Virus genome (UHGV): UHGV-0131811 | DNA: 64,000 nt | Reading direction: 5' to 3' (one strand) | DNA from: a virus | Part shown: positions 39,398-63,982 of the stretch, piece after piece | Layout of the letters: every line of letters starts with the position of its first letter | Numbering within the stretch: the first letter of the stretch is position 1 | Notes under the pieces: model-generated | What the model saw: the letters and a program-made list of their open reading frames with translations, nothing else | What the model was told of the DNA's origin: nothing | Database searches by the model: none | Program-made: the position numbers and the translations under genes

Positions 39398-41014
39398 TCA
39401 ACGTCTAAGCCCCTCATATGGGTTTCCTCTCACTAAGTCTGTGTGAGCACCCATTGATGGTGGCTTGAATAATTTAACTTCGTTAAGACTGTTGAAAGCA
39501 TCACTGGTAGCATCCACTTGGTCATCTTTAGTTTTACCATCACCACAAAAACCTTCAAGTTCTTGAAAGTAAGCTTCGTTCCAACTACCTCTCAAGACTT
39601 TTACAAGTCCAGCTTCAGAAGCAGCAGAAAACCCCGCAAATCGGGTAACTTTGTCTTTATTTGTTGGTTTAGCTCTTGCTCGATAACCTTTCTCGGCAAG
39701 TTTCCTGATGAGGGATGTTGCGTAGGATTTACCAGCAGCGCCTGGGTCTTGAGGGATAAAAATACCAGTTCGCTTACCGTCACTTTCAGCAGTCAAATTA
39801 ATTTGTGTTTCGACTCCAGAGGGTCTATCTCTAAATCTTACTACATCAATGATATAATAGCAACCGTCTTTTTTAGATTTACCCATCTTAACACCTGCTG
39901 TCCAGTCTGGGTTAGGGTTAATCTCAGATGGTAAAGTTGCTGCTAAGTCCCATGCTCTGACATCGAATACATCTTCTGGGAGTGAATCAACAATTTCACA
40001 CCATTGTCTTTGCCAATAGTTTGAACCTTCTGCACGAGCCTTCCAGTTACCGAAACGAAGTCTTGCAACGTTTACAGGGGTGTTGTTTTCCAACTTACCA
40101 CGATATTTAGGTTCTAAGAAGTCAAGAATTGGGTTATCATCAATCGTACCAGAGATGAATGTATATGTTTGAGGAATCTCAAGAGGAAACATTTCAAGAA
40201 TCTTGTCTCTCTCCCAATCAGAAACCATAACACCATCATTCATTACATACCAACGAATACGACCACACTTTTCAGGGTCTGGGTAACCTTCTTCATCTAA
40301 GAATGGTTCTACCCAATCGTAAATAAAGTGGTCTCTGTCTGGGTTCATAGAAATCTTCATGTATGAATCACCTTCAGCCCCAGAACGTAGACGAGTCTGT
40401 AGGTATGAAATCTGTGAAGCAGAGAAGTGAGTACCTTCGTCAAAGTAAATAGCTGAATACTCAATACCCTGATGACCTTCAGCGTGCTTTTCAAGCTCTA
40501 GATAGGTAAACTTGATAGTTGCCCCAGAAGGGAATGTGATAGTCATCTTCTGCTCGTGAGGAACCCCACCAAACTTACCAAATAGTTTCTTTGCAGCAGG
40601 CCACAAACCACCTTGTAGCTGTGTTGTATTTCGACGGAAATATACAGCATTATAATTAGGGTCATCAATAAACCTTAAAGAGTCCATTAACAATGCAGCA
40701 GTCTTACCAGCACCCGCAGCACCACCATAGAGAACCAAGTCAGCATTAGTATTTAAAAAGACCTCTTGAGAACCCGGCTGAGGGGCTACATAATTCTTAT
40801 CAGTCATCAATTTAAAGATAAGGCGAACTTGGTCTGGTGTGTATCTTAATAAAGTCAGAATTTGAGTTGGAAGGAATTTAGAGGGGTCTTTACCGAATGA
40901 TTTAATAATTTCTTTTACTTCATCAGAAAGCCCCAACTCTCCAGCTAGGACTTTCCTAACATCTTCCACTCGCTTCTGCTTAACAGCATTTAAGTCCATT
41001 AAGCACCTCCGCAA
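39398..41014 (-). CDS. Terminase large subunit
   Basis: 538 aa; Walker A VLYGGAAGAGKT in N-terminal ATPase domain; acidic-residue nuclease half. Confidence 0.8.
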   Translation of the reverse strand: MRRCLMDLNAVKQKRVEDVRKVLAGELGLSDEVKEIIKSFGKDPSKFLPTQILTLLRYTPDQVRLIFKLMTDKNYVAPQPGSQEVFLNTNADLVLYGGAAGAGKTAALLMDSLRFIDDPNYNAVYFRRNTTQLQGGLWPAAKKLFGKFGGVPHEQKMTITFPSGATIKFTYLELEKHAEGHQGIEYSAIYFDEGTHFSASQISYLQTRLRSGAEGDSYMKISMNPDRDHFIYDWVEPFLDEEGYPDPEKCGRIRWYVMNDGVMVSDWERDKILEMFPLEIPQTYTFISGTIDDNPILDFLEPKYRGKLENNTPVNVARLRFGNWKARAEGSNYWQRQWCEIVDSLPEDVFDVRAWDLAATLPSEINPNPDWTAGVKMGKSKKDGCYYIIDVVRFRDRPSGVETQINLTAESDGKRTGIFIPQDPGAAGKSYATSLIRKLAEKGYRARAKPTNKDKVTRFAGFSAASEAGLVKVLRGSWNEAYFQELEGFCGDGKTKDDQVDATSDAFNSLNEVKLFKPPSMGAHTDLVRGNPYEGLRR

Positions 41015-41020
41015 ATAGAA

Positions 41021-41221
41021 TTATTCAGAGTCTGTAGCAGTCTCTTCTTTCTTAACTTCGAACTTTGCATCAACAGCATCAAGAAGTGCATCCATAGATG
41101 CTTCTTTAATATCAATACCTGTTGCTACAGACAATCTGTCTGCAATTGCCATGATAGTATTCTGCATAAATTCTAGCTTTTTATTAGCTTCATAAAGTTC
41201 TTTATAAACGGTCTCGCTCAT
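41021..41221 (-). CDS. Hypothetical small acidic protein
   Basis: 66 aa ORF just upstream of terminase. Confidence 0.35.
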   Translation of the reverse strand: MSETVYKELYEANKKLEFMQNTIMAIADRLSVATGIDIKEASMDALLDAVDAKFEVKKEETATDSE

Positions 41222-41443: not shown

Positions 41444-41519
41444 TGGAGAATCCGAAGGGACTCGAACCCTTATAAACCTGTTTTGCAGACAGGCACATAG
41501 CCGTTTCTGTCACGGATTC
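41444..41519 (-). tRNA. tRNA-Cys (GCA)
   Basis: Hand-folded: acceptor GAATCCG/CGGATTC, anticodon loop CTGCAAA, T-loop TTCGAGT, encoded CCA. Confidence 0.7.
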
Positions 41520-41524
41520 AAATT

Positions 41525-41616
41525 GGAGGAAGATACCAGACTTGAACTGGTACACCGATTTCTCAGCTACTGGCAGTTTAGCAAACTGCTCCCTTACCTT
41601 TTAGGGTTAATCTTCC
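41525..41616 (-). tRNA. tRNA-Ser (GCU), class II
   Basis: Acceptor GGAAGAT/ATCTTCC, anticodon loop TTGCTAA, long variable arm, T-loop TTCAAGT, CCA. Confidence 0.7.
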
Positions 41617-41618
41617 AT

Positions 41619-42416
41619 TTATTTCTGTAATGCGTTCTTCATTTCTGGTGTTGCAATAGTGTCAATTACACCAGTTTTACAAGCATCATCAAACCAGTCT
41701 GGTAAGATACCTGCTAAGAACCCATTGATATTCGTTTTAAGGTACTCTGCAATAAGAGCAGCTTCTTCTTCAATCATCTGCACAACTTCATCTGCATAAG
41801 CTGTAATTTTTGAAATACCTTCATTAATCTTACTAACAGCTTGCTCAGCTAAATCAGAAATAGTATCAAGACCTTTGTCAATAGCATCTTGTAAGTCACT
41901 TAACACACCATTAACACTATCTAGTGCACTGTTAATCGTATCAATAGTTTTTTGACCATACTCTGTAGCAACACCCATAATACCACTAAATGGTGTACAG
42001 CCAACTTGTTCACCTGCTGCACCCATAACATTAGAGTAACCTTTTGCTACCTGCATACGTGATGAAAACTCATCAATGGACTTTTGACCGTAATCTGTTA
42101 GTGTTTTGGTAGTTGATGTAGTGCTTGTCAGACTCGTGGTAAAGCTGTTAAGCAGAACTGTTGTAAGTCCAGCAGCAACAAGCTTATCCTTTACTGTAGG
42201 GTCTGATACAGAGCTAATAGAGCTTACAAGTGATGTAGAGGCAGCTACGGTTCCACCGAGAACTGCTGCACCAGTAATAAGGGGGTTAGAAAACCCTTTA
42301 CCGGTTTTTAAGAGATTGAAAATCTCCTTACCTTGTTCTGTCATCTCTTTCATTAAGCACCTTTGAAATTGGTAGTCCAGTGGGATTTGAACCCTCTTCT
42401 CATGTTTTTCAGACAC
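41619..42416 (-). CDS. Hypothetical Ser/Thr-rich protein embedded in tRNA array
   Basis: 265 aa with low-complexity S/T-rich middle and helical C-terminus; same strand as tRNAs. Confidence 0.45.
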   Translation of the reverse strand: MSEKHEKRVQIPLDYQFQRCLMKEMTEQGKEIFNLLKTGKGFSNPLITGAAVLGGTVAASTSLVSSISSVSDPTVKDKLVAAGLTTVLLNSFTTSLTSTTSTTKTLTDYGQKSIDEFSSRMQVAKGYSNVMGAAGEQVGCTPFSGIMGVATEYGQKTIDTINSALDSVNGVLSDLQDAIDKGLDTISDLAEQAVSKINEGISKITAYADEVVQMIEEEAALIAEYLKTNINGFLAGILPDWFDDACKTGVIDTIATPEMKNALQK

Positions 42417-42445
42417 GCGCTTTAACCATATAAGCTACTTGGACT
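42369..42445 (-). tRNA. tRNA, probably Phe (GAA)
   Basis: T-loop TTCAAAT; anticodon loop CTGAAAA on CGTGT/ACATG stem; acceptor register and 3' end slightly ambiguous. Confidence 0.55.
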
Positions 42446-42450
42446 ATAAA

Positions 42451-42526
42451 TTGGGGTGACCTACGGGATTTGAACCCGTATAGACCATGTTCACAGCATG
42501 GGTCATTACCATTTATGATAAGGCCA
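42451..42526 (-). tRNA. tRNA-His (GUG)
   Basis: Acceptor GTGGCCT/AGGTCAC, anticodon loop CTGTGAA, T-loop TTCAAAT, CCA. Confidence 0.65.
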
Positions 42527-42557
42527 CATTTAAGGACTCTCGTAAGAATCCTTAGAA

Positions 42558-42633
42558 GTGGCAGCGGCATAAGGATTTGAACCTTAATAGGACAGCTTCA
42601 GAGACTGCTGCATTGCCAGTTATGCTATACCGC
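42558..42633 (-). tRNA. tRNA-Gln (CUG)
   Basis: Acceptor AGCGGTA/TGCCGCT, D-arm GCAT/ATGC, anticodon loop CTCTGAA, T-loop TTCAAAT, CCA. Confidence 0.55.
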
Positions 42634-42638
42634 TAAAT

Positions 42639-42717
42639 TTGGTACTCCATATCGGATTCGAACCGATACATAACACAGATTTTAAGTCTGGCCTCTCTGC
42701 CAATTGGAGTAATGGAG
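42639..42717 (-). tRNA. tRNA with anticodon UAA (Leu-type) but class I (short variable arm) architecture
   Basis: T-arm ATCGG-TTCGAAT-CCGAT, D-loop AATTGGCAG, anticodon loop CTTAAAA, discriminator A, CCA; variable region ~7 nt. Confidence 0.5.
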
Positions 42718-42719
42718 CA

Positions 42720-42795
42720 TTGGCGGGGGATGTTGGAATTGAACCAACTTCTTCGATTTCAAAGACCGAGGTTTTAACCTTGTAAACTAATCCCC
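42720..42795 (-). tRNA. tRNA-Gln (UUG)
   Basis: T-arm GTTGG-TTCAATT-CCAAC, anticodon loop CTTTGAA; 5' end uncertain by 1 nt. Confidence 0.55.
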
Positions 42796-42804
42796 TTTAA
42801 ATCT

Positions 42805-43362
42805 TTACTTTCTCAGTGGATGAATAAAGAATGCCAACATAACTCTTTCCCTTGAGAATGCTCTTTCTTCTGGGACAACACTTTTAAGTTTCCATCCAAC
42901 ATAAATTCTCCAGTAAAACTGTTTACCGAAGACTTTAATTGATGGGATAAAAGCGAATAATCCCCAAGCATTACTGTTCCACATTAGGAGATAACCAGTC
43001 TGATTATCTTCAGGGTTAGAACTTACGTTGATATTACCTTTCCACTTAGTAACATCTCTTACATCTCTTCCTAATACATGGTAAGAGAAGTTATAAGCTT
43101 TGTTTCTCCAGAGCCATCCGACTCTTTGCATGTAGACACCTAGTTTACCAATCCATCTAATATTAGCCCATCTTTTAACGTGACCTTCATCACCATCAAT
43201 TGGGTTGTCATATGTCTCCATCCATCTGAACCCGAAAGGTAAGTGTCCTTTCTTCTCACTGTAGAATGGAACTACAAAAGGTGCTAAGATAACTGCTAAG
43301 ATTGCTGCAAATGGCTCTAACAAAGCTAAGAAAATCCATGAAGCATACTTTAAGTATCTCAT
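42805..43362 (-). CDS. Hypothetical membrane-associated protein inside tRNA array
   Basis: 185 aa; hydrophobic N-terminal ~35 aa, Trp/Arg-rich remainder. Confidence 0.45.
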   Translation of the reverse strand: MRYLKYASWIFLALLEPFAAILAVILAPFVVPFYSEKKGHLPFGFRWMETYDNPIDGDEGHVKRWANIRWIGKLGVYMQRVGWLWRNKAYNFSYHVLGRDVRDVTKWKGNINVSSNPEDNQTGYLLMWNSNAWGLFAFIPSIKVFGKQFYWRIYVGWKLKSVVPEERAFSRERVMLAFFIHPLRK

Positions 43363-43601
43363 TGTCTAATCCTCGTAAGGAGGTAAATGTTATTATTCGT
43401 TTCTAAACCTTCTGGTAAAACTGTCTCAAAAATAACACTCTTCAGATGTCTACCACCAAAACAATCACGTATAAATCTTTCTACTCTAGCGGGGTCGCAT
43501 AAGTATCCCACTTTTAAGAAAATGTGGTGTTCAACACCAATGACCCTGACAAACTCAATACTCTCACAGTTTTCATGTTCAACTACTGTTAATGTTTGCA
43601 T
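43359..43601 (-). CDS. Hypothetical protein inside tRNA array
   Basis: 80 aa; stop overlaps start of 42805..43362. Confidence 0.4.
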   Translation of the reverse strand: MQTLTVVEHENCESIEFVRVIGVEHHIFLKVGYLCDPARVERFIRDCFGGRHLKSVIFETVLPEGLETNNNIYLLTRIRQ

Positions 43602-43618
43602 AGTATCACCTTTTTATC

Positions 43619-43694
43619 TGGCGCAGGATAAGGGATTCGAACCCCTATTAACAGCTTCGTAGACTGTTGCTCTTTCCATTTGAACTAATCCTGC
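43619..43694 (-). tRNA. tRNA-Arg (ACG)
   Basis: Acceptor GCAGGAT/ATCCTGC, anticodon loop CTACGAA, T-arm AGGGG-TTCGAAT-CCCTT, CCA. Confidence 0.7.
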
Positions 43695-43699
43695 AAAAT

Positions 43700-43777
43700 T
43701 GGTGTTCCAAGACGGATTCGAACCGTCACTAATACAAGGTTTGAGCTTGCATCCTCTGCCAATTGGGATACTGGAAC
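43700..43777 (-). tRNA. tRNA with anticodon CAA (Leu-type) but class I architecture
   Basis: Acceptor GTTCCAG/TTGGAAC, D-loop AATTGGCAG, anticodon arm GCAAG-CTCAAAC-CTTGT, T-arm GACGG-TTCGAAT-CCGTC, discriminator A, CCA. Confidence 0.5.
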
Positions 43778-43778
43778 A

Positions 43779-43853
43779 TGGTACTCACTAAAGGACTTGA
43801 ACCTTTTTCTTCATCTTGTAAGGGTGATGTTTTACCATATAAACTAAGCGAGT
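43779..43853 (-). tRNA. tRNA, anticodon arm ambiguous (possibly Val UAC)
   Basis: Acceptor ACTCGCT/AGTGAGT, T-arm AAAGG-TTCAAGT-CCTTT, CCA; anticodon stem has a mismatch or enlarged loop. Confidence 0.45.
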
Positions 43854-43949
43854 ATGAAAGAGGTCTGAAGTTGTGCCGCTAACTCAACTCCGTGGTATTT
43901 GTTACGGTCTTCAGTTGACTCAAAGCGGTCTTTCACTTGACCTCTGAAT

Positions 43950-44026
43950 TGGTGCTGCTCACAGGACTCGAACCTGCATTTCCATCCTTACAAGGGATGT
44001 GTAATAGCCAATTATACGAAAGCAGC
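43950..44026 (-). tRNA. tRNA-Thr (UGU)
   Basis: Acceptor GCTGCTT/GAGCAGC, anticodon arm CATCC-CTTGTAA-GGATG, T-loop TTCGAGT, CCA. Confidence 0.7.
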
Positions 44027-44032
44027 ATTGTT

Positions 44033-44107
44033 TGGAGCATCCAGAGGGAATCGAACCCTCAACCTCAGTTTGGAAGACTGTAATTTTCCCGTTTAAACTA
44101 TGGATGC
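44033..44107 (-). tRNA. tRNA-Gly (UCC)
   Basis: Acceptor GCATCCA/TGGATGC, anticodon loop CTTCCAA, T-arm GAGGG-TTCGATT-CCCTC, CCA. Confidence 0.65.
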
Positions 44108-44113
44108 ACTAAT

Positions 44114-44189
44114 TGGTGGAGAAGCAGGGAATTGAACCCTGTACTTAAGTTTGCAAAACTTATGTTTTAACCATGTAAACTACATCCCC
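44114..44189 (-). tRNA. tRNA-Ala (UGC)
   Basis: Anticodon arm TAAGT-TTTGCAA-ACTTA, T-arm CAGGG-TTCAATT-CCCTG, CCA; acceptor has one mismatch. Confidence 0.6.
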
Positions 44190-44195
44190 AATGTT

Positions 44196-44271
44196 TGGTA
44201 CAGGTGGAGGGAATTGAACCCATCGTCTTACTGATTAAGAGTCAGCCGCATAACCATTCTGCTACACCTGC
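44196..44271 (-). tRNA. tRNA-Lys (CUU)
   Basis: Acceptor GCAGGTG/CACCTGT, anticodon loop CTCTTAA, T-loop TTCAATT, CCA. Confidence 0.6.
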
Positions 44272-44278
44272 ATTAATT

Positions 44279-44355
44279 TGGTACACCTAGAGAGATTCGA
44301 ACTCACACTGAGCAGATTCTAAGTCTGCTGCCTCTACCAGTTGGGCTATAGGTGC
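44279..44355 (-). tRNA. tRNA with anticodon UAG (Leu-type) but class I architecture
   Basis: Acceptor GCACCTA/TAGGTGT, D-arm GCCC-AACTGGTAG-AGGC, anticodon arm GCAGA-CTTAGAA-TCTGC, 5-nt variable loop, T-loop TTCGAAT, discriminator A, CCA. Confidence 0.55.
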
Positions 44356-44613
44356 ATTAAATCTTTTTAGAGAACTTCTAAGAACCTGAGCAACAAGGTT
44401 CCACAACAAGCGACTAATAACCTTAGAAGCCCTCTAAAAAGACCTAAATAGGTCTTTGCATAGTCTTGTTTAATCCGGTGACTAGAACCTTTGGAGAGCT
44501 TGATATTATCTCTTCTCCGTGACACCTACTAGGTGTTTTATCAGTGTGTACGACAATACACGAGGGATACCAAAGCAACATCCGAATGAAGCTTGGCTTT
44601 AAATCTTATTAGG

Positions 44614-44701
44614 CGGTAAGTAAAGGAGTCGAACCCTCACCGTATCTCTACAGTGGCAACTGTTTTCAAGACAGTTTGGCTACCATTAGCCGCTACCTAC
44701 C
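44614..44701 (-). tRNA. tRNA-Ser (UGA), class II
   Basis: Acceptor GGTAGGT/ACTTACC, anticodon arm ACTGT-CTTGAAA-ACAGT, long variable arm, T-loop TTCGACT; CCA not encoded. Confidence 0.65.
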
Positions 44702-44714
44702 CCTAATAAGACTT

Positions 44715-44797
44715 TGGCATGGGACGGAGGAGTTGAACCCCTTTGAAACGGTGTTGGAAGCCGTTGCTCATGCCTTAGAGTCTTAACATCGTCCCAT
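44715..44797 (-). tRNA. tRNA-like gene, atypical (83 nt); anticodon undetermined
   Basis: Acceptor ATGGGAC/GTCCCAT (8 bp possible), T-loop TTCAACT, CCA; D region about 7 nt too long and anticodon arm cannot be placed unambiguously. Confidence 0.4.
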
Positions 44798-44934
44798 ACT
44801 ATAATTCGAAGCTTACCGTATTATCTCAACACTGTAAAGCCCCTTCTCAGATTATTTACATGTTCTGGAAAACATGAGATACAGACCACCTCCCTACAGG
44901 AAGACCCGCTAAGGTCGTCTAAGTAATCTGCTAA

Positions 44935-45282
44935 CTAATATTTTGCATGTCTTACCCTATGGCAATTTGAACATAGCAAAACACATTTGTCAAGTTCATC
45001 TTTTAGTTCTTGAGAGAACTTAAGGCTTTTCCTATGACCAATGTTAAAATCTTTATCTGAAGGATTCAAATGATGGAAGTCATACACTGCTGGATGATAC
45101 TTCTTACCACAATCATGACAAACCCCACCTTTGTACTCAATAGCTAAGAGTTTAAGTGCTCTTTGTCTTTCTATGGTTTGCTCATTAACACACTTTTTAC
45201 AGTATGAATGAGTTCTCCTACCATCTTTCATGTAGAAATCATTTTCATCCTTGCTAAGTTTGCACCTAATACAAGTTTTCAT
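44935..45282 (-). CDS. HNH endonuclease inside tRNA array
   Basis: CIRCKL...CKKC and CHDCG...HHLNP...CSNCHRVRH (two zinc knuckles plus HNH core). Track N-terminal extension to 45333 overlaps the adjacent tRNA-like gene, so start trimmed to the internal Met. Confidence 0.65.
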   Translation of the reverse strand: MKTCIRCKLSKDENDFYMKDGRRTHSYCKKCVNEQTIERQRALKLLAIEYKGGVCHDCGKKYHPAVYDFHHLNPSDKDFNIGHRKSLKFSQELKDELDKCVLLCSNCHRVRHAKY

Positions 45283-45296
45283 GATTTCTCCAAAAT

Positions 45297-45378
45297 TGGT
45301 CGAGGCGGCAGGACTCGAACCCGCATACTCCACTTACTCGGTTAACGGCGGTTTAGAAGACCGCTGAGATACGCCCCG
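45297..45378 (-). tRNA. tRNA-like element with canonical acceptor/T-arm but atypical D/anticodon region
   Basis: Acceptor CGGGGCG/CGCCTCG, T-arm GCGGG-TTCGAGT-CCTGC, CCA; interior has hairpin GCGGT-CTTCTAA-ACCGC only 9 nt after the acceptor, so no standard cloverleaf; the hairpin carries the recurring GGTCTTCT spacer motif. Confidence 0.35.
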
Positions 45379-45626
45379 TAATTATCTTTAAAGACTCTCT
45401 TAGAAAGCCCTTAAAGATGCCCACCTTATTAATCATACCGTGGGCGAGTACGCCAAATTCTTTGATGAGGGATTGGAAGACCTCACTGGTGTTTAGCCTA
45501 TCAAGCTACTGCCAGAAAAACATTGTCGTTTGCATTTATTTTAAATTTGCAAAATAGACGCTACGCAACGAAAACTAAGGTTACTATAAAGTAGTCACAT
45601 CTCAATGTCAACAACTTTATTGAAAT

Positions 45627-45702
45627 TGGTACTGGTAGGTGGAATCGAACCACCGATGTTCCCTTATCAGGGGAGTGTTATAACCTTCTTAACTATACCA
45701 GC
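45627..45702 (-). tRNA. tRNA-Ile (GAU)
   Basis: Acceptor GCTGGTA/TACCAGT, anticodon loop CTGATAA, T-arm GGTGG-TTCGATT-CCACC, CCA. Confidence 0.65.
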
Positions 45703-45703
45703 T

Positions 45704-45780
45704 TGGAGGTTCAGATGGGAATCGAACCCACATTCATAGGGCTTATGAGACCCTTGCATTACCTTATCTGCGACTGAACC
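45704..45780 (-). tRNA. tRNA-Met (CAU)
   Basis: Acceptor GGTTCAG/CTGAACC, anticodon arm AGGGT-CTCATAA-GCCCT, T-loop TTCGATT, CCA. Confidence 0.65.
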
Positions 45781-45784
45781 ATAT

Positions 45785-45860
45785 TGGTAGAAGTGGAGGG
45801 ATTCGAACCCATCGCCTGTCAGATTAAAAGTCTGCCGCATCACCATTCTGCTACACTTCC
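45785..45860 (-). tRNA. tRNA-Lys (UUU)
   Basis: Acceptor GGAAGTG/CACTTCT, anticodon loop CTTTTAA, T-loop TTCGAAT, CCA. Confidence 0.65.
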
Positions 45861-46044
45861 ATTAAATTACCTTTGTAGATAAGCTACCCAGACTTGCTTA
45901 AGGTCTGTAGCGATGTGCCTTTTTGGGTTTAAATCTAGAATTTACCCATTCACCCTTTGTGGTCGCATACTCACAGGTAAGCTTAATAACTTATCTACAA
46001 AGATAATTACCAGACCGTTGTTTATCATCTTAAGTGCTACCATT

Positions 46045-56686: not shown

Positions 56687-57235
56687 ATGGGAAAAGATAA
56701 CTTAAAAGATGTTGAAGGTAACTATCTAGTCCTTGATTGGAGTGATGCTCAAGAAGCACTCTCTGAAGAAAGTCTTGACAGATTAAAACAGATTGTTTTT
56801 GCAGTACGGGGTTACAGAGAAGTTAAAAATGGTAAAGACCCACTTGAAGGAGTCTTTGTAGAGAAATCTTATCCGTTCTATGAAGACACTTTGCAGAAAG
56901 TTAAGATGTACTTTAAACAGAAGAACCGTAAAGTGGTCACTATGGTTTCTCTTGGTGGACAGAGTATGTCTGTGATGGAAGACATCAACCCTAAGAGACC
57001 GAGTAAAGGTGTTTGTATAAAAATCACAGGACATGAAGAGTATATCTCAGTGGATGACTTTAGTGCATTCTGTAATGGGTCTGCTGTCTTTAATGGGTTT
57101 CACTATGATATCCGAGTGTATCCAATCAAGGGAGATGATATCATGATGCAGATATTCGATAACAACAACGGACTCACTCATTTTTATCAGACAACTAAGT
57201 CATCCCTAAAAACAGTTCTGGAAACACTGATTTAA
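56687..57235 (+). CDS. Hypothetical protein
   Basis: ATG 56687 chosen to avoid overlap with upstream gene; track start is 56642. Confidence 0.4.
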   Translation: MGKDNLKDVEGNYLVLDWSDAQEALSEESLDRLKQIVFAVRGYREVKNGKDPLEGVFVEKSYPFYEDTLQKVKMYFKQKNRKVVTMVSLGGQSMSVMEDINPKRPSKGVCIKITGHEEYISVDDFSAFCNGSAVFNGFHYDIRVYPIKGDDIMMQIFDNNNGLTHFYQTTKSSLKTVLETLI

Positions 57236-57245
57236 AATATCTTAA

Positions 57246-57275
57246 GAGCCTCCTTAATCGGGGGCTTTTTAATTT
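57246..57275 (+). terminator. Terminator-like hairpin after last plus-strand gene
   Basis: AGCCTCCTTAATCGGGGGCT followed by TTTTTAATTTTTAT. Confidence 0.5.
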
Positions 57276-57299
57276 TTATAAAATTTTATCGGTTGTCCC

Positions 57300-58760
57300 A
57301 ACCTCTGGGTCACCATCATATGTGAACAAAATATCTATCCTTCTTAACAACCTTCTTAATCTTACTCTCTATATAGTTATATAGTACTATATAGTATCTT
57401 AGTAACTATCTAGTGGTCTTAATAGTCCCTCTGTATAACCCTTCTAACAAGCCCTCTAACAAGTCTTCTTAACAACCTATACAATCACCTTAACCATCTC
57501 TCTATACCCTCTTAGAAGCTCCTATACACCTCTTAATCTCTATGTCAGCTATGATACCCTCTATAGGTGTTCACTAGGTATTACTAAGCCTCTATATAGA
57601 CTGTTTTAACAAACTTAACAGGAATATCTTTACAGACCTTATCTCACAAGGTCTAACACGGTACTAACAAGGTATCTTATAAGCCTGTTTCTGCCTGTAT
57701 TTTTAAAAGGCTGTATAGGTAATTATTCAGAATCTTAAAATTTTTATAAAATAGGACTATCAAGTCATTTTTTAGGGTCTTTGAAGGAACTGAAAAATAT
57801 CTGTAGAAGATGTATATCTGCTTGGTAGCCCTTAACAGCTCCCTTACAAGTACTTTGCAAAATCTTAAAATATCATTAACAATCTCTTAACAACTCTCTC
57901 AAGTTCTTAACATCTCTTCAGAGGTCTTAACAGATTCTTAACAGAACTAACAAGGTTGTAACAAGTTCTTAACAGTTGATACATAGGCTTTACAGAATCT
58001 TAACAGATGACTAACAAGAGCTAACAAGTTAATTTTAAAGGGTTATTTTGTTAAGATAATTAACAAGTTTCTAACAAGTGTTTAATCTTTTTAACAAGCT
58101 ATTAACATGGTCACTATCTCTTTTCTTATCGTTCCCTTTACTTCTTAGTGATTCCTTAAACATACCTCTTAAAAGCTCTCTATAGCCCCTTATAAGTTCT
58201 TTTAAGCCTCTTCCTAGTATTTACCCCTCAACTGTATGGATAGCTCTTTATAGGGCTTTACAGGAGCTTTTAAGGCTATGTCAAAGACTCTTACAAGGCT
58301 TTTACGTGGTCTTAACAGAGATTTAACAAGGGGCTAACAAGTCTCTAACAAGCATAACTATGTAGGGATTGTTAAGAAATTGTTAAGAAAATGTTAAGGG
58401 GGCTAGCATTTACGTAGCTTTTAAGCTATCTATCACGTAACTTTATAGCCCCTATAACATACTTTTTAGTGACTATCAAGGGATTGTTTAGATATTCACA
58501 AGATACTAGCCAGCTTATAAGCTTGTACCCTTATAAGATTCTTCTAAGGCTCTGGGAAGCTCTATAAAGGGCTTTTTAGAGTGGGTTAATATGATTGCTT
58601 AAGTTAGGTTGATAAGGCTGTTATAGAGCGTTATAGAGCGTTTTAATGGTTGCCCTTCCCTTTCGGGTTATGGGCTTATATTTAAGTTGATTTGATAAAA
58701 GGCTATAGAGTAGACTATAGAGTTATTGCTTTTAAGGTATGGGATAGATTCTAGGAAGGA
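57300..58760. repeat. Iteron-like array: about 25 copies of (C/T)TAACA(A/G)G with AT-rich TATATAGT repeats and other short direct repeats
   Basis: AT-rich TATATAGTTATATAGTACTATATAGTA at 57390-57420; TAACAAG/TAACAG copies clustered 57450-58360; GTTATAGAGCG x2 at 58617-58638; TTGTTAAGAAA x2 at 58368-58390. No ORF of 60 aa or more on either strand. Confidence 0.6.
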
Positions 58761-58859
58761 AAGGAAAGAGATTGTATAGAGTTTCTTTATAGACGTAAAA
58801 AAGCCCCTATGAGAAGGAGCTTTTAAGGTATCTGGGGCTATTTAGCCCCGTTGCGTCGA

Positions 58860-59108
58860 TTAGTTAGTGCCATCTTTGTCGTAGTATAGGGAGACAATTT
58901 TTTCACCCCAATAGTGATAAGAATAACCATCTTTGAGAACTTCCTGTTTTGTTTCTTTCCAGAACTCATCAGAAGGGTTATAGTCTTTGATGGTTTGACT
59001 GATAAGACCTTTCACCATCTCAAAGGCGTTATCAGTACCTACAAGGTCAAATTTAACATCCAGAGAGCAAAAGCCGAATTCGTTAACAGTTGCGCGGATA
59101 GTAGCCAT
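58860..59108 (-). CDS. Hypothetical small protein (early-gene array)
   Basis: Start set to ATG behind GGAGATTCTAAA RBS; the track N-terminal extension is a translation of the conserved 5' leader. Confidence 0.5.
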   Translation of the reverse strand: MATIRATVNEFGFCSLDVKFDLVGTDNAFEMVKGLISQTIKDYNPSDEFWKETKQEVLKDGYSYHYWGEKIVSLYYDKDGTN

Positions 59109-59185
59109 TTTAGAATCTCCTAGTTTAAGGTTTTTATTTAGTAGGGAGGTCATCCCTCCCCGTTGATTAGTAATTTACTGCATGT
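59109..59185 (-). promoter_or_regulatory. Conserved 5' leader, class A (hairpin GGGGAGGGAT-GACC-TCCCTAC + TAAACTAGGAGATTCTAAA)
   Basis: Near-identical copies at 59439-59515, 60577-60655, 61801-61875, 62665-62745. Confidence 0.55.
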
Positions 59186-59438
59186 TGGCGTAGGTTGCAA
59201 GCCTTTTTTCGTTGTATTTTGTAAGAATCTCACAAGATAGAACATCGTACTTTGTAACCGCTTTGCTTTTGTCGAGGTCAAAAAAGCCAAATGCTTTACC
59301 ATCTTTGAATCCGACAACTTCGTAAGATTCTTTGATGATTTCACCATTGAACAAATCACTCTCTATACGGTGAAATAATGCTACGTCTTCCTTGTCGGTT
59401 GCGATTTGTAAGAGTGTGGTCAGTTCTACGTGTTCCAT
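59175..59438 (-). CDS. Hypothetical small protein
   Basis: 87 aa; ATG behind class A leader. Confidence 0.5.
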   Translation of the reverse strand: MEHVELTTLLQIATDKEDVALFHRIESDLFNGEIIKESYEVVGFKDGKAFGFFDLDKSKAVTKYDVLSCEILTKYNEKRLATYANMQ

Positions 59439-59515
59439 TTTGAATCTCCAGTTTAGGACTTTACTTAGTGGGGAAGGTTATTCCCTCCCCGTTGATTGAT
59501 AATTTACAGACTTTT
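59439..59515 (-). promoter_or_regulatory. Conserved 5' leader, class A
   Basis: AACGGGGAGGGAATAACCTTCCCCACTAAGTAAAGTCCTAAACTGGAGATTCAAAATG in sense. Confidence 0.55.
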
Positions 59516-60576: not shown

Positions 60577-60655
60577 TTTTAGAATCTCCAGTTTAGGACT
60601 TTATTTAGTGGGGAAGGTCATTCCCTCCCCGTTGATGTGTAATTTACAGACTTTT
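60577..60655 (-). promoter_or_regulatory. Conserved 5' leader, class A
   Basis: Hairpin GGGGAGGGAATGACCTTCCCC plus GGAGATTCTAAAAATG. Confidence 0.55.
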
Positions 60656-61509: not shown

Positions 61510-61602
61510 TTTGAATCTCCTAGTTTAAGGATTTAGTGGTAAAGCTCTTTATCTGGGGCTTACTTTATCGAACTATAAGCCCCTTGTAAAGTACTTTATC
61601 AG
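61510..61602 (-). promoter_or_regulatory. Conserved 5' leader, class B (hairpin AAGGGGCTTA...TAAGCCCC + AGATAAAGAGCTTTACCAC + TAAACTAGGAGATTC)
   Basis: Near-identical copies at 62307-62391 and 63605-63691. Confidence 0.55.
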
Positions 61603-61800
61603 TTAATTTTTGACAACTTTTAAAACTGCAAGATAACCTAAGCAATAAGAATCACCGAAGAGAGTTCTACCCATGAAAGAATCATCTTTGATATCCTTTG
61701 CAGTGACTGTTTTTTCTACGCCGTGGGAAAGAACTACATCACCAACTTTAATGTCTTTGATGTGCGTGGTTTCAATGGTTAAACCGTTGATAATAGCCAT
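61603..61800 (-). CDS. Hypothetical small protein
   Basis: 65 aa; ATG behind class A leader. Confidence 0.45.
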   Translation of the reverse strand: MAIINGLTIETTHIKDIKVGDVVLSHGVEKTVTAKDIKDDSFMGRTLFGDSYCLGYLAVLKVVKN

Positions 61801-61875
61801 TTTGAGTCTCCTAGTTTAAGGACTTTACTTAGTGGGGAGGGTCATTCCCTCCCCGTTGATGTGTAATTTAATCTA
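61801..61875 (-). promoter_or_regulatory. Conserved 5' leader, class A
   Basis: GGGGAGGGAATGACCCTCCCC hairpin plus GGAGACTCAAAATG. Confidence 0.55.
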
Positions 61876-61901
61876 TCTAAAAATCAGTGTCAATAAAATT
61901 T

Positions 61902-62306: not shown

Positions 62307-62391
62307 TTTAGAATCTCCAATTTAGGATTGAGTGGTAAAGCTCTTTATCTGGGGCTTACTGTACAGACTAATAAGCCCCCTGTAAAGTACT
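62307..62391 (-). promoter_or_regulatory. Conserved 5' leader, class B
   Basis: Shares TGGTAAAGCTCTTTATCTGGGGCTTA...TAAGCCCC with 61510-61602 and 63605-63691. Confidence 0.55.
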
Positions 62392-62664
62392 TTATACTAA
62401 ATGCAGTTTTTTACCTTTTACTATGATGTAACTTGATGTGCTATTGCTACATACATCCTGATAAATTCTGCGCAAACGTCCTTCATAGTATACTTTCCAG
62501 CTAGTTGGAATCTTTTTGCCGTATCCGGTAGCAGTTTTTTGGAGTCCTGCGACTTGCCAATCTAAGATATGTTGCTCAGCCTGTAAATCCTCAAAGTGCA
62601 TCACACCGTCTACATAGTGACGTAGAGTGACATTTAAAGTGCGACCGTTGTTAGTAGTATACAT
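62392..62664 (-). CDS. Hypothetical small protein
   Basis: Start trimmed to ATG at 62662-62664 behind RBS; track extension translates the class A leader. Confidence 0.5.
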   Translation of the reverse strand: MYTTNNGRTLNVTLRHYVDGVMHFEDLQAEQHILDWQVAGLQKTATGYGKKIPTSWKVYYEGRLRRIYQDVCSNSTSSYIIVKGKKLHLV

Positions 62665-62745
62665 TTTAGAATCTCCTAGTTTAAGGACTTTATTTAGTAG
62701 GGTGTTTATTGCCTCCCCGTTGATGTGCAATTTAATCTATCTAAA
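62665..62745 (-). promoter_or_regulatory. Conserved 5' leader, class A (variant)
   Basis: GGGGAGGCAATAAACACCCTAC variant plus TAAACTAGGAGATTCTAAAATG. Confidence 0.5.
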
Positions 62746-62753
62746 AATCAGTG

Positions 62754-63086
62754 TCAACAGTTTTGTTTTCGTTTGCTCAACTCTTGAACAATTACAGTAT
62801 GATAGTCTTTTAAGTCACTAATATTTAAAGCATTTATCAGAGAATTATAATCATCGACTAATTGAAAATCATCTTTGAAAATGTCGCTGATTTGATAAGT
62901 TCTCGCCCTGAATCTGAAGCTCATTTCTAACCGCTTTAATTGTTCATCGCTCAACCGCTCTAGAAAGCTCATTACAAGGCTATTGCTAACCTGTTGTGTA
63001 ATTGCCTTATTTGCTAGATTATAGGCTTTATATGCCTTATAGAGCGCGAAAATGGCAATGATTGCAGTGATACCAGTCATTAACAT
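62754..63086 (-). CDS. Hypothetical membrane protein
   Basis: 110 aa; N-terminal hydrophobic segment MLMTGITAIIAIFALY; start overlaps upstream stop. Confidence 0.45.
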   Translation of the reverse strand: MLMTGITAIIAIFALYKAYKAYNLANKAITQQVSNSLVMSFLERLSDEQLKRLEMSFRFRARTYQISDIFKDDFQLVDDYNSLINALNISDLKDYHTVIVQELSKRKQNC

Positions 63087-63604: not shown

Positions 63605-63691
63605 TTTTGAATCTCCAGTTTAGGATTAGTGGTAAAGCTCTTTATCTGGGGCTTAAGGTATCAACTTTTAAGCCCCTTGTAAAGTACTTTA
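63605..63691 (-). promoter_or_regulatory. Conserved 5' leader, class B
   Basis: Same hairpin and spacer as 61510-61602. Confidence 0.55.
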
Positions 63692-63982
63692 TCAGTTAAT
63701 TTTCAGCTTTGCATGACTTCTCATTGTACGAATTGGAGATGTTAAGGCTACGCGTCTAATATATGCCTTTTTCGTGTATACATTTGTCTTTCCGATAGTG
63801 TTTACACATGTAAAAAGATTCATTGGTGAATTTTTTAACTTCAACTGTTTATCAGCCTTCACACCCCATCTTACAGCAGATTGTTTTCCGTTGTCAACCA
63901 CTTTCCCGCCTAACTTTTTCGCCATGATGCGAGCGTCATCACGAGTTTTTACAGGAATTACAACGTTTTTGATAGTAGCCAT
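63692..63982 (-). CDS. Hypothetical basic protein
   Basis: 96 aa; ATG behind TTGGAGATTCAAAA RBS at window end. Confidence 0.45.
   Translation of the reverse strand: MATIKNVVIPVKTRDDARIMAKKLGGKVVDNGKQSAVRWGVKADKQLKLKNSPMNLFTCVNTIGKTNVYTKKAYIRRVALTSPIRTMRSHAKLKIN

Follow-up and report, generated by a model that had tools for sequence, protein, structure and literature searches.

A gene-free region between converging gene blocks

We analysed a stretch of 64,000 nucleotides (nt) from a virus genome (UHGV-0131811; hereafter the window), which belongs to a Felixounavirus, a Felix O1-type phage. The region at 57240-58855 of the window holds arrays of the short word (C/T)TAACA within and beside a segment that corresponds, by homology to relatives, to the direct terminal repeat (DTR) of the packaged chromosome. 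This region contains no open reading frame (ORF) of at least 60 amino acids (aa) and is flanked by convergent gene blocks, a plus-strand block that extends to 57235 and a minus-strand block that ends at 58860. We found that each block ends in a terminator. The plus-strand block is closed by a rho-independent terminator at 57244-57275 on the plus strand (stem AAGAGCCUCC/GGGGGCUUUU and then a U-run; fold of -14.5 kcal/mol), whose homologue carries a terminator annotation in phage wV8. The minus-strand block is closed at 58796-58849 on the minus strand by two hairpins, the second of which has a U-run and forms a rho-independent terminator (-27.2 kcal/mol for the 82-nt segment containing them). 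Both terminators face into the gene-free region. An earlier note on this DNA had placed the region at the boundary between the plus-strand and minus-strand blocks and had seen no ORF of 60 aa or more in it, and both statements were borne out.

The region is conserved and has received automatic 'hypothetical protein' calls in some relatives, and both facts would suit a region that gives rise to small peptides or a long non-coding RNA. Inside 57240-58855 there are four ORFs of 30-35 aa, two of which match automatic gene calls in relatives. However, frameshifts or stops interrupt these small ORFs in relatives, their third codon positions show no bias, and sequence autocorrelation found no 3-bp coding periodicity in 57824-58403. 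The short annotated genes that the earlier note had reckoned with in relatives are automatic calls only and break on comparison. An Rfam scan of 57000-59100 with E up to 1 returned no family at threshold; its sole match, below threshold, was Phe_leader (E = 0.27), which lies over the terminator. Promoter-like sites in the region are at chance level (8 vs 7.6 expected), and the terminators of both flanks are directed into it. The region thus has neither the Rfam match nor the promoter with conserved structure by which a structured non-coding RNA would be recognized, and we give an RNA or peptide product next to no weight.

A direct terminal repeat placed by the ends of relatives

More than 200 Felixounavirus records match the region at 87-92% identity, and many of them start or stop inside it, always at the same two places. 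We found that the records of Ro111lw (USA; 613 bp), D4 (Philippines; 581 bp) and SeKF_63 (Canada; 613 bp) carry repeats that are 100% identical at both record ends, and all of these end repeats map to 57824-58403 of the window. The H12 record opens at the base homologous to 58403. Hence, four records from independent isolates start or stop at bases homologous to 57824 and 58403. Corroborating these positions, a 'DTR' annotation in UAB_69 covers this interval and reaches 2 nt beyond it to either side.

Published work agrees with this placement. In UAB_Phi87, a DTR of 608 bp was determined by digestion with Bal31 together with run-off sequencing (PMC4837284), and PhageTerm gave DTRs of 613 bp in Ro111lw (PMC6454146) and 581 bp in Pr103Blw (PMC8303462), as well as direct terminal repeats, with no length stated, in D4 and H12 (PMC11737134). 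The large terminase subunit (TerL) of the Felix O1 type clusters in a DTR group (PMC4837284). The element in the window and the DTRs previously reported for UAB_Phi87, Ro111lw, Pr103Blw and UAB_69 are the same element, in the same place and with the same boundary words. By homology, the element has fixed ends, the same sequence at both ends and a single copy per genome unit: the window holds one repeat copy with both arms contiguous, and most GenBank relatives hold one internal copy. From these comparisons, 57824-58403 is identified as a 580-bp DTR and the whole region as the concatemer junction, made up of left arm, DTR and right arm. Two other records were set aside: the UAB_Phi87 record JN225449 is not opened at the physical ends, and the 127-bp end repeat of PC79-13, tried as a DTR, looks like an assembly overlap.

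The DTR of the genus is therefore already known and carries an annotation in a few records, and the detail of its internal arrays is the new part. Our full-text search of the literature found the DTR of the genus reported as a length or as existing only, with no account of arrays, phasing, boundary symmetry, a hairpin or conservation across genera. In the text of a PhageMaP study on the Felixounavirus Bas63, no result is stated for the region.

Phased one-strand arrays of the TTAACA word

The 6-bp core (C/T)TAACA, written YTAACA below, occurs 27 times on the plus strand and 4 times on the minus strand of 57240-58855. First-order Markov simulations of the region gave a mean of 1.6 copies, and 0 of 2000 simulations reached 27, so that the enrichment test proposed in the earlier note came out far above expectation. 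The strand bias of 27:4 is significant (binomial p = 3e-5). Counting both strands, core density is 19/kb in the region, 40/kb in 57824-58403 and 1.9/kb in the remaining 62 kb. Twenty-three of the 31 cores lie inside the DTR and the other eight in the left arm, all on the plus strand; the right arm has none. The earlier note had given about 25 copies of the longer word (C/T)TAACA(A/G)G in roughly 900 bp. Its span was right (57444-58352, 909 bp), but its count was not: the strict word has 13 copies, on the plus strand only, and a figure of about 25 fits the 6-bp core alone.

The closely spaced pairs and triplets of the earlier note are real, with successive cores chiefly 9-13 and 20-22 bp apart. 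Pairwise distances between cores cluster at 11, 20-22, 31, 42, ~52 and ~62 bp, a period of 10.3-10.5 bp. Autocorrelation of 57824-58403 has z = 8.8 at lag 11, with more peaks at lags 20-22 and 31-32. Hence, cores 11, 21, 31 and 42 bp apart lie on the same face of the helix.

Other repeats accompany the array, much as the earlier note had it. Its AT-rich TATATAGT stretch was confirmed with three copies, at 57370, 57378 and 57388 (57370-57395), and the 40-mer 57714-57753, with 12.5% G+C, ties for the lowest of the whole window. The other short direct repeats that it had placed after the array proved to be TTGTTAAGAAA (three copies at 58368-58398), GTTATAGAGC (2.3 copies at 58620-58642) and TATAGAG (five copies). 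The second enriched word is CTCTATA, with four plus-strand copies in the left part of the region, five minus-strand copies in the right part and five copies in the other 62 kb.

Two further resemblances of the TTAACA word were noted. The word resembles the -35 hexamer TTGACA, and the idea of an RNA-polymerase decoy or promoter array was dropped since -10 partners are not above chance. The sequence GGTTGTAACAAG at 57955-57966 is similar to the core of the Tus-binding Ter site (GTTGTAAC), and GTTGTAACAG occurs twice in the repeat of the Erwinia phage phiEa21-4; these Ter-like words may be mere variants of the TAACA word.

Anatomy of the junction

The left arm (57276-57823) is conserved and non-coding. 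It contains eight plus-strand YTAACA cores (57344-57669), the four plus-strand copies of CTCTATA (57367, 57500, 57559 and 57590) and both AT-rich items. It ends in the left cut-site word TGTATATCTGCTT (57811-57823, plus strand), and virion DNA begins at the next base. This word is invariant in 18 of 18 sequences aligned from the genera Felixounavirus, Mooglevirus and Suspvirus and is identical in phiEa21-4.

The DTR (57824-58403, plus strand) runs from GGTAGCCCTTAACA to ATGTTAAGGGGGC and stands at both ends of the packaged chromosome in relatives. Array A (57832-58107, plus strand) comprises 15 plus-strand YTAACA cores spaced 9-44 bp apart, mostly 11, 20 and 31 bp, together with one inverted copy at 58049. 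The centre of the DTR, about 200 bp (58108-58311), has no YTAACA core; it holds related words of the CTTNNAAG type (CTTAAAAG, CTTATAAG, CTTTTAAG and CTTACAAG) and one CTCTATA. Array B (58312-58350, plus strand) follows with four YTAACA cores at an exact 11-bp spacing (58312, 58323, 58334 and 58345). The last element, abutting the right cut site, is inverted: three tandem copies of TTGTTAAGAAA on the minus strand (58368-58400) with an 11-bp period, whose homologues number 3 to 6 copies in relatives. The right cut follows ATGTTAAGGGGGC, which ends at 58403 and is also invariant in 18 of 18 aligned sequences. Because the copies at the right cut are inverted, both virion ends read inward as GCCC(CC)TTAACA-N5-TTAACA.

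The right arm (58404-58795) has no YTAACA cores. It opens with a variable-number unit of the TTTACGTAAC type (58409-58450) and carries TATAGAG at 58622, 58632, 58704, 58716 and 58775, which is CTCTATA in the orientation opposite to that of the left arm. The tandem unit (TTTTACGTAACTTTNAAG...ATAGCCCC) is present as 1-2 units in the window and as about 5 in Salmonella phage Si3.

Both arms hold further small features. The word CTATCAAG occurs once per arm (57757-57764 and within 58473-58485), 59 bp and 69 bp outside the cut sites, and the left arm of phiEa21-4 holds GCTATCAAGGG. The right copy (TATCAAGGGATTG) fits the consensus of integration host factor (IHF), WATCAANNNNTTR; of the two copies, only the left is conserved. 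An IHF site at 58473-58485, the one full consensus match, was accordingly rejected, as it is not conserved in relatives. Some relatives have palindromic insertions of 24-27 bp that are absent from the window, at points homologous to ~57808 and ~58480. One of these, TTGATTCGGTAGAATCTACCTCAT, immediately precedes the left cut-site word, at 16 bp to the left of the cut, in VpaE1, SP116 and a single metagenomic contig; the right arms of UAB_69 and another contig contain TAGGATTCGATAGATTCCTATCTCATA, and a third variant is found in Silverhawkium. These insertions may be miniature mobile hairpin elements.

A predicted hairpin across the right cut site

We found an inverted repeat across the right cut site (58390-58458), running from ATGTTAAGGGGGC over the cut and the following TA to TAGCCCCTATAACAT, that is predicted to be capable of forming a hairpin or cruciform. 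The predicted fold of 58390-58458 as single-stranded DNA has an energy of -17 kcal/mol (z = -3.7), which none of 200 shuffles matched. The loop is formed by the variable-number unit 58409-58450, and although its length varies, the outer stem recurs in the predictions for 14 of 18 relatives. The left cut site has no equivalent hairpin (z = +0.8).

Conservation across the Ounavirinae

When 17 relatives from three genera were compared with the window, mean identity was 0.92 in the left arm, 0.90 in the DTR and 0.84 in the right arm, and it was 0.75 and 0.68 in the adjacent ORF ends. Alignment with related phages, a check put forward in the earlier note, thus found the region to be more conserved than its flanking genes and not unconserved junk. 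The motif columns of the DTR have an identity of 0.978 vs 0.874 for its other columns (uncorrected for phylogeny), which indicates, from the alignment, that the motif copies are under purifying selection. Every Ounavirinae locus examined has 12-22 plus-strand and 2-6 minus-strand cores inside a DTR of 439-658 bp. As a negative control, seven chance matches to the cut-site word in unrelated metagenomic contigs have 0-1 cores each.

The strongest comparison is with phiEa21-4 (genus Kolesnikvirus), in which BLAST finds only ~120 bp of weak similarity. In this phage, a gene-free gap of 1.2 kb occupies the corresponding map position, and a 439-bp interval after the left word contains 12 plus-strand and 5 minus-strand cores. 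Its homologous right boundary is ...GAAATGTAAAAGTGGC, and the related Prophecy record opens there. The right arm of phiEa21-4 has nine copies of TTAGAAG in place of TATAGAG. Hence, the arm word has changed and the DTR word has been kept.

These comparisons bear on the idea that the repeats are neutral by-products of slippage or unequal recombination and that only the two cut sites are functional. Copy number and DTR length do vary (439-658 bp, 3-6 inverted copies and the variable-number unit of the right arm), as neutral repeats would. T7 tolerates most single insertions in its genome ends, the exceptions being those at positions 142 and 162 by the end of the DTR (10.1101/2024.10.10.617714), a result that suits neutrality and that also fits redundant arrays with critical cut sites. 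However, the difference between motif columns and spacers, the retention of orientation, phasing and copy number (16-22) across genera, and the survival of the core word in Erwinia phages in which the sequence around it is no longer recognizably similar all speak against neutral repeats, which we consider highly improbable.

Likeness to T7, SP6 and other multi-site signals

The closest architectural parallels that we found are the chromosome ends of T7 and SP6. The first 340 bp of T7 contain CTAAAG 11 times on the plus strand and 0 times on the minus strand, three of them inside the 160-bp repeat, and more copies stand before the right repeat. SP6 has CTTAGT 12 times on one strand and 0 times on the other. 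A sequence check of N4 found no comparable array. The T7 flanking short-repeat arrays were reportedly named SRL and SRR by Dunn and Studier in 1983. The Felixounavirus junction resembles both phages in its short, exact and non-permuted DTR, in its non-coding junction and in an asymmetric one-strand word of 6-7 bp (CCTAAAG in T7, CCTTAGT in SP6) within or beside the DTR at a spacing of about one helical turn; as in those phages, the word is asymmetric and far above chance on one strand (27:4).

This likeness is of architecture only, and shared ancestry with the T7 arrays is not indicated, as the word and the phage family are both different. In contrast to T7, the phage that bears the array is a myovirus of an unrelated lineage, the subfamily Ounavirinae, and its TerL is of the T4 type; its DTR, longer by a factor of 3.6, holds most of the copies (23/31), the word is TTAACA, three inverted copies stand at one boundary, and a small terminase is not recognizable. 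The flanks here end converging transcription units, whereas the early promoters of T7 point away from its left end. We know of no phage RNA polymerase in the Felix O1-type group, and packaging here therefore cannot depend on one. Packaging of T7 does depend on its phage RNA polymerase (PMC3276506). A direct repeat common to both cut sites, as in T7 (ATCTNNACAG after both cuts), was sought and rejected, with only a weak TGTWWA...G..T resemblance between the sites.

Multi-site signals read by small terminases include lambda cosB, with its R sites and an IHF site, the pacL and pacR boxes of SPP1 and the pac hexamers of P1. These are similar to the junction in that several short phased sites flank a cleavage site and DNA bending is likely in recognition. 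They differ in that they serve cohesive ends or headful packaging, have a known small terminase and have far fewer sites.

The earlier note had offered a replication origin or a multi-site protein-binding locus. The second stands, with numerous, one-strand, phased and conserved copies; the first found no initiator, no enrichment of DnaA boxes and words of only 6-9 bp. The note, which had the letters alone to go on, could not show the decisive point, that the array falls on the DTR and its two cut sites. If the region is, or also is, an origin, the TTAACA words would be its iterons and the AT-rich 57370-57395 and 57714-57753 its unwinding element. Iteron origins such as lambda ori, P1 oriR and pSC101 have few iterons of 17-22 bp, with the initiator gene next to or around them. 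The region is like these origins in its intergenic direct repeats, set in helical phase by an AT-rich stretch, and the phased repeats adjoin some of the AT-richest 40-mers of the window. The zone is also predicted to be free of transcription, given its terminators and chance-level promoters, and is strongly conserved, and the literature that we searched contains no description of a Felix O1-type origin.

The region is unlike iteron origins in its ~31 words of 6-9 bp, where 4-8 iterons of 17-22 bp are typical, and in the lack of a recognizable initiator: ten neighbouring proteins were scanned and gave no Pfam domain, only PHROGs of unknown function, and no initiator-like gene. DnaA boxes are not enriched, with four at one mismatch vs 1.9 expected and none perfect. 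Moreover, the array coincides exactly with the virion termini of relatives, which is enough to explain its conservation and repetition, and T7 and SP6, whose termini are not primary replication origins, carry the same kind of array there. We therefore judge an origin to be improbable.

A probable T7-type packaging and end-generation locus

Taken together, we read the region as a T7-type packaging and end-generation locus in which the phased arrays load terminase or a recognition factor, and we put the probability of this reading at roughly 0.65. In the mechanism that we propose, the convergent terminators would keep transcription out of the junction. Replication would give concatemers with one DTR copy per junction, by analogy with T7, which has one repeat per concatemer junction and makes the second copy during packaging (PMC10438801). 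TerL and a putative recognition factor would bind the phased array along one face of the DNA, and this binding would bend or wrap ~600 bp and so place the nuclease at both cut sites. The two cut sites would be brought together and nicked. The DTR would then be duplicated by nicking and strand-displacement synthesis, possibly via the hairpin of the right site. After infection, recombination or annealing between the two DTR copies would rebuild concatemers. A hairpin processing intermediate is said to have been proposed for T7 by Chung, Nardone and Hinkle in 1990.

The expected cutter at both sites is TerL, a T4-type large terminase subunit encoded at 39398-41014 on the minus strand (phrog_979; PF03237 and PF17289). 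No small terminase was recognizable beside TerL in the window, none is annotated beside TerL in H12, and none was recognized in Felix O1 (PMC3185647). Directly upstream of TerL, in the usual position of a small terminase, a 66-aa acidic protein is encoded at 41021-41221 on the minus strand; its only match is phrog_4397, of unknown function.

A more specific form of the packaging reading is tentative, and we hold it to be possible at well below even odds. In this form, the one-strand phased TTAACA array would be a loading platform for a putative DNA-recognition component, a functional small terminase, that wraps the whole 580-bp repeat; both cut sites, with their mutually inverted TTAACA words, would be cleaved together, and the hairpin of the right site would prime duplication of the repeat. 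If this is true, such arrays would be a general and convergently evolved requirement for exact terminal repeats, with T7 and SP6 using arrays of other words.

The arrays could instead bind a protein of end protection or end pairing, other than terminase and encoded by phage or host, that coats the ends, shields them from RecBCD and pairs them so that they recombine into circles or concatemers. In favour of such a protein are the terminal inverted symmetry of the DTR, whose two ends read inward alike, the location of most copies within the DTR, hence at both ends of the injected DNA, and their position on one helical face. We found no candidate protein for this role, though, and the eight copies outside the DTR, which are in the left arm only, fit a junction-specific packaging signal better. 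End protection is compatible with packaging, not exclusive of it, and we consider it unlikely.

Several points weigh against the packaging and end-generation reading. The DTR of this phage is placed by homology to the ends of relatives, and the boundaries given by PhageTerm and by run-off sequencing are 2 nt apart on each side; part of this difference may be the non-templated A of run-off sequencing, an effect noted in PMC4925675. No small terminase or other DNA-binding candidate was found among the scanned neighbours of the region and of TerL. SP116, SUSP2, Mordin and phiEa21-4 lack the hairpin of the right site or have a different one. The periodicity of AA/TT dinucleotides, a proxy for curvature, is raised only moderately (97th-99th percentile), which is too weak a signal to rely on. 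Finally, conservation may partly reflect homogenization by recombination at the DTR and not selection at each site.

Neighbouring features

The small minus-strand genes beyond the region are separated by intergenic cassettes of ~78 nt (59109-59186, 59438-59515, 60578-60655, 61802-61879 and 62655-62757), and a second family of cassettes lies at 61533-61610, 62329-62406 and 63626-63703. On the minus strand, each cassette contains a hairpin rich in G+C, a hexamer of the TTGACA type and, directly ahead of the next ATG, the ribosome-binding site GGAGA. Judged by these elements, the cassettes look like reiterated units of terminator, promoter and ribosome-binding site. Their counterparts are the DR_2/3/5 features of wV8 and the repeats of 57 and 39 bp reported in Felix O1 (PMC3185647).

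Directly upstream of the TerL gene, 25 transfer RNA (tRNA) genes occupy 41444-47018 on the minus strand. The tRNA cluster is followed by a 471-aa ORF (47184-48599), which relatives annotate as a vWFA or RNA-binding protein and whose counterpart a preprint calls Ro60-like (10.1101/2024.10.10.617714).

Significance for the Felix O1-type phages

Felixounavirus is a large genus in therapeutic use, and most of its records are opened arbitrarily; cuts directly after TGTATATCTGCTT and ATGTTAAGGGGGC place the physical ends by sequence alone. For engineering, rebooted genomes, reporter phages and the packaging of foreign DNA must keep the junction intact. For basic biology, the arrays offer a second system, unrelated to T7, for testing short-repeat arrays at T7-type termini, and the junction is a defined and conserved DNA target for finding the chromosome-recognition factor in a group without an identifiable small terminase.

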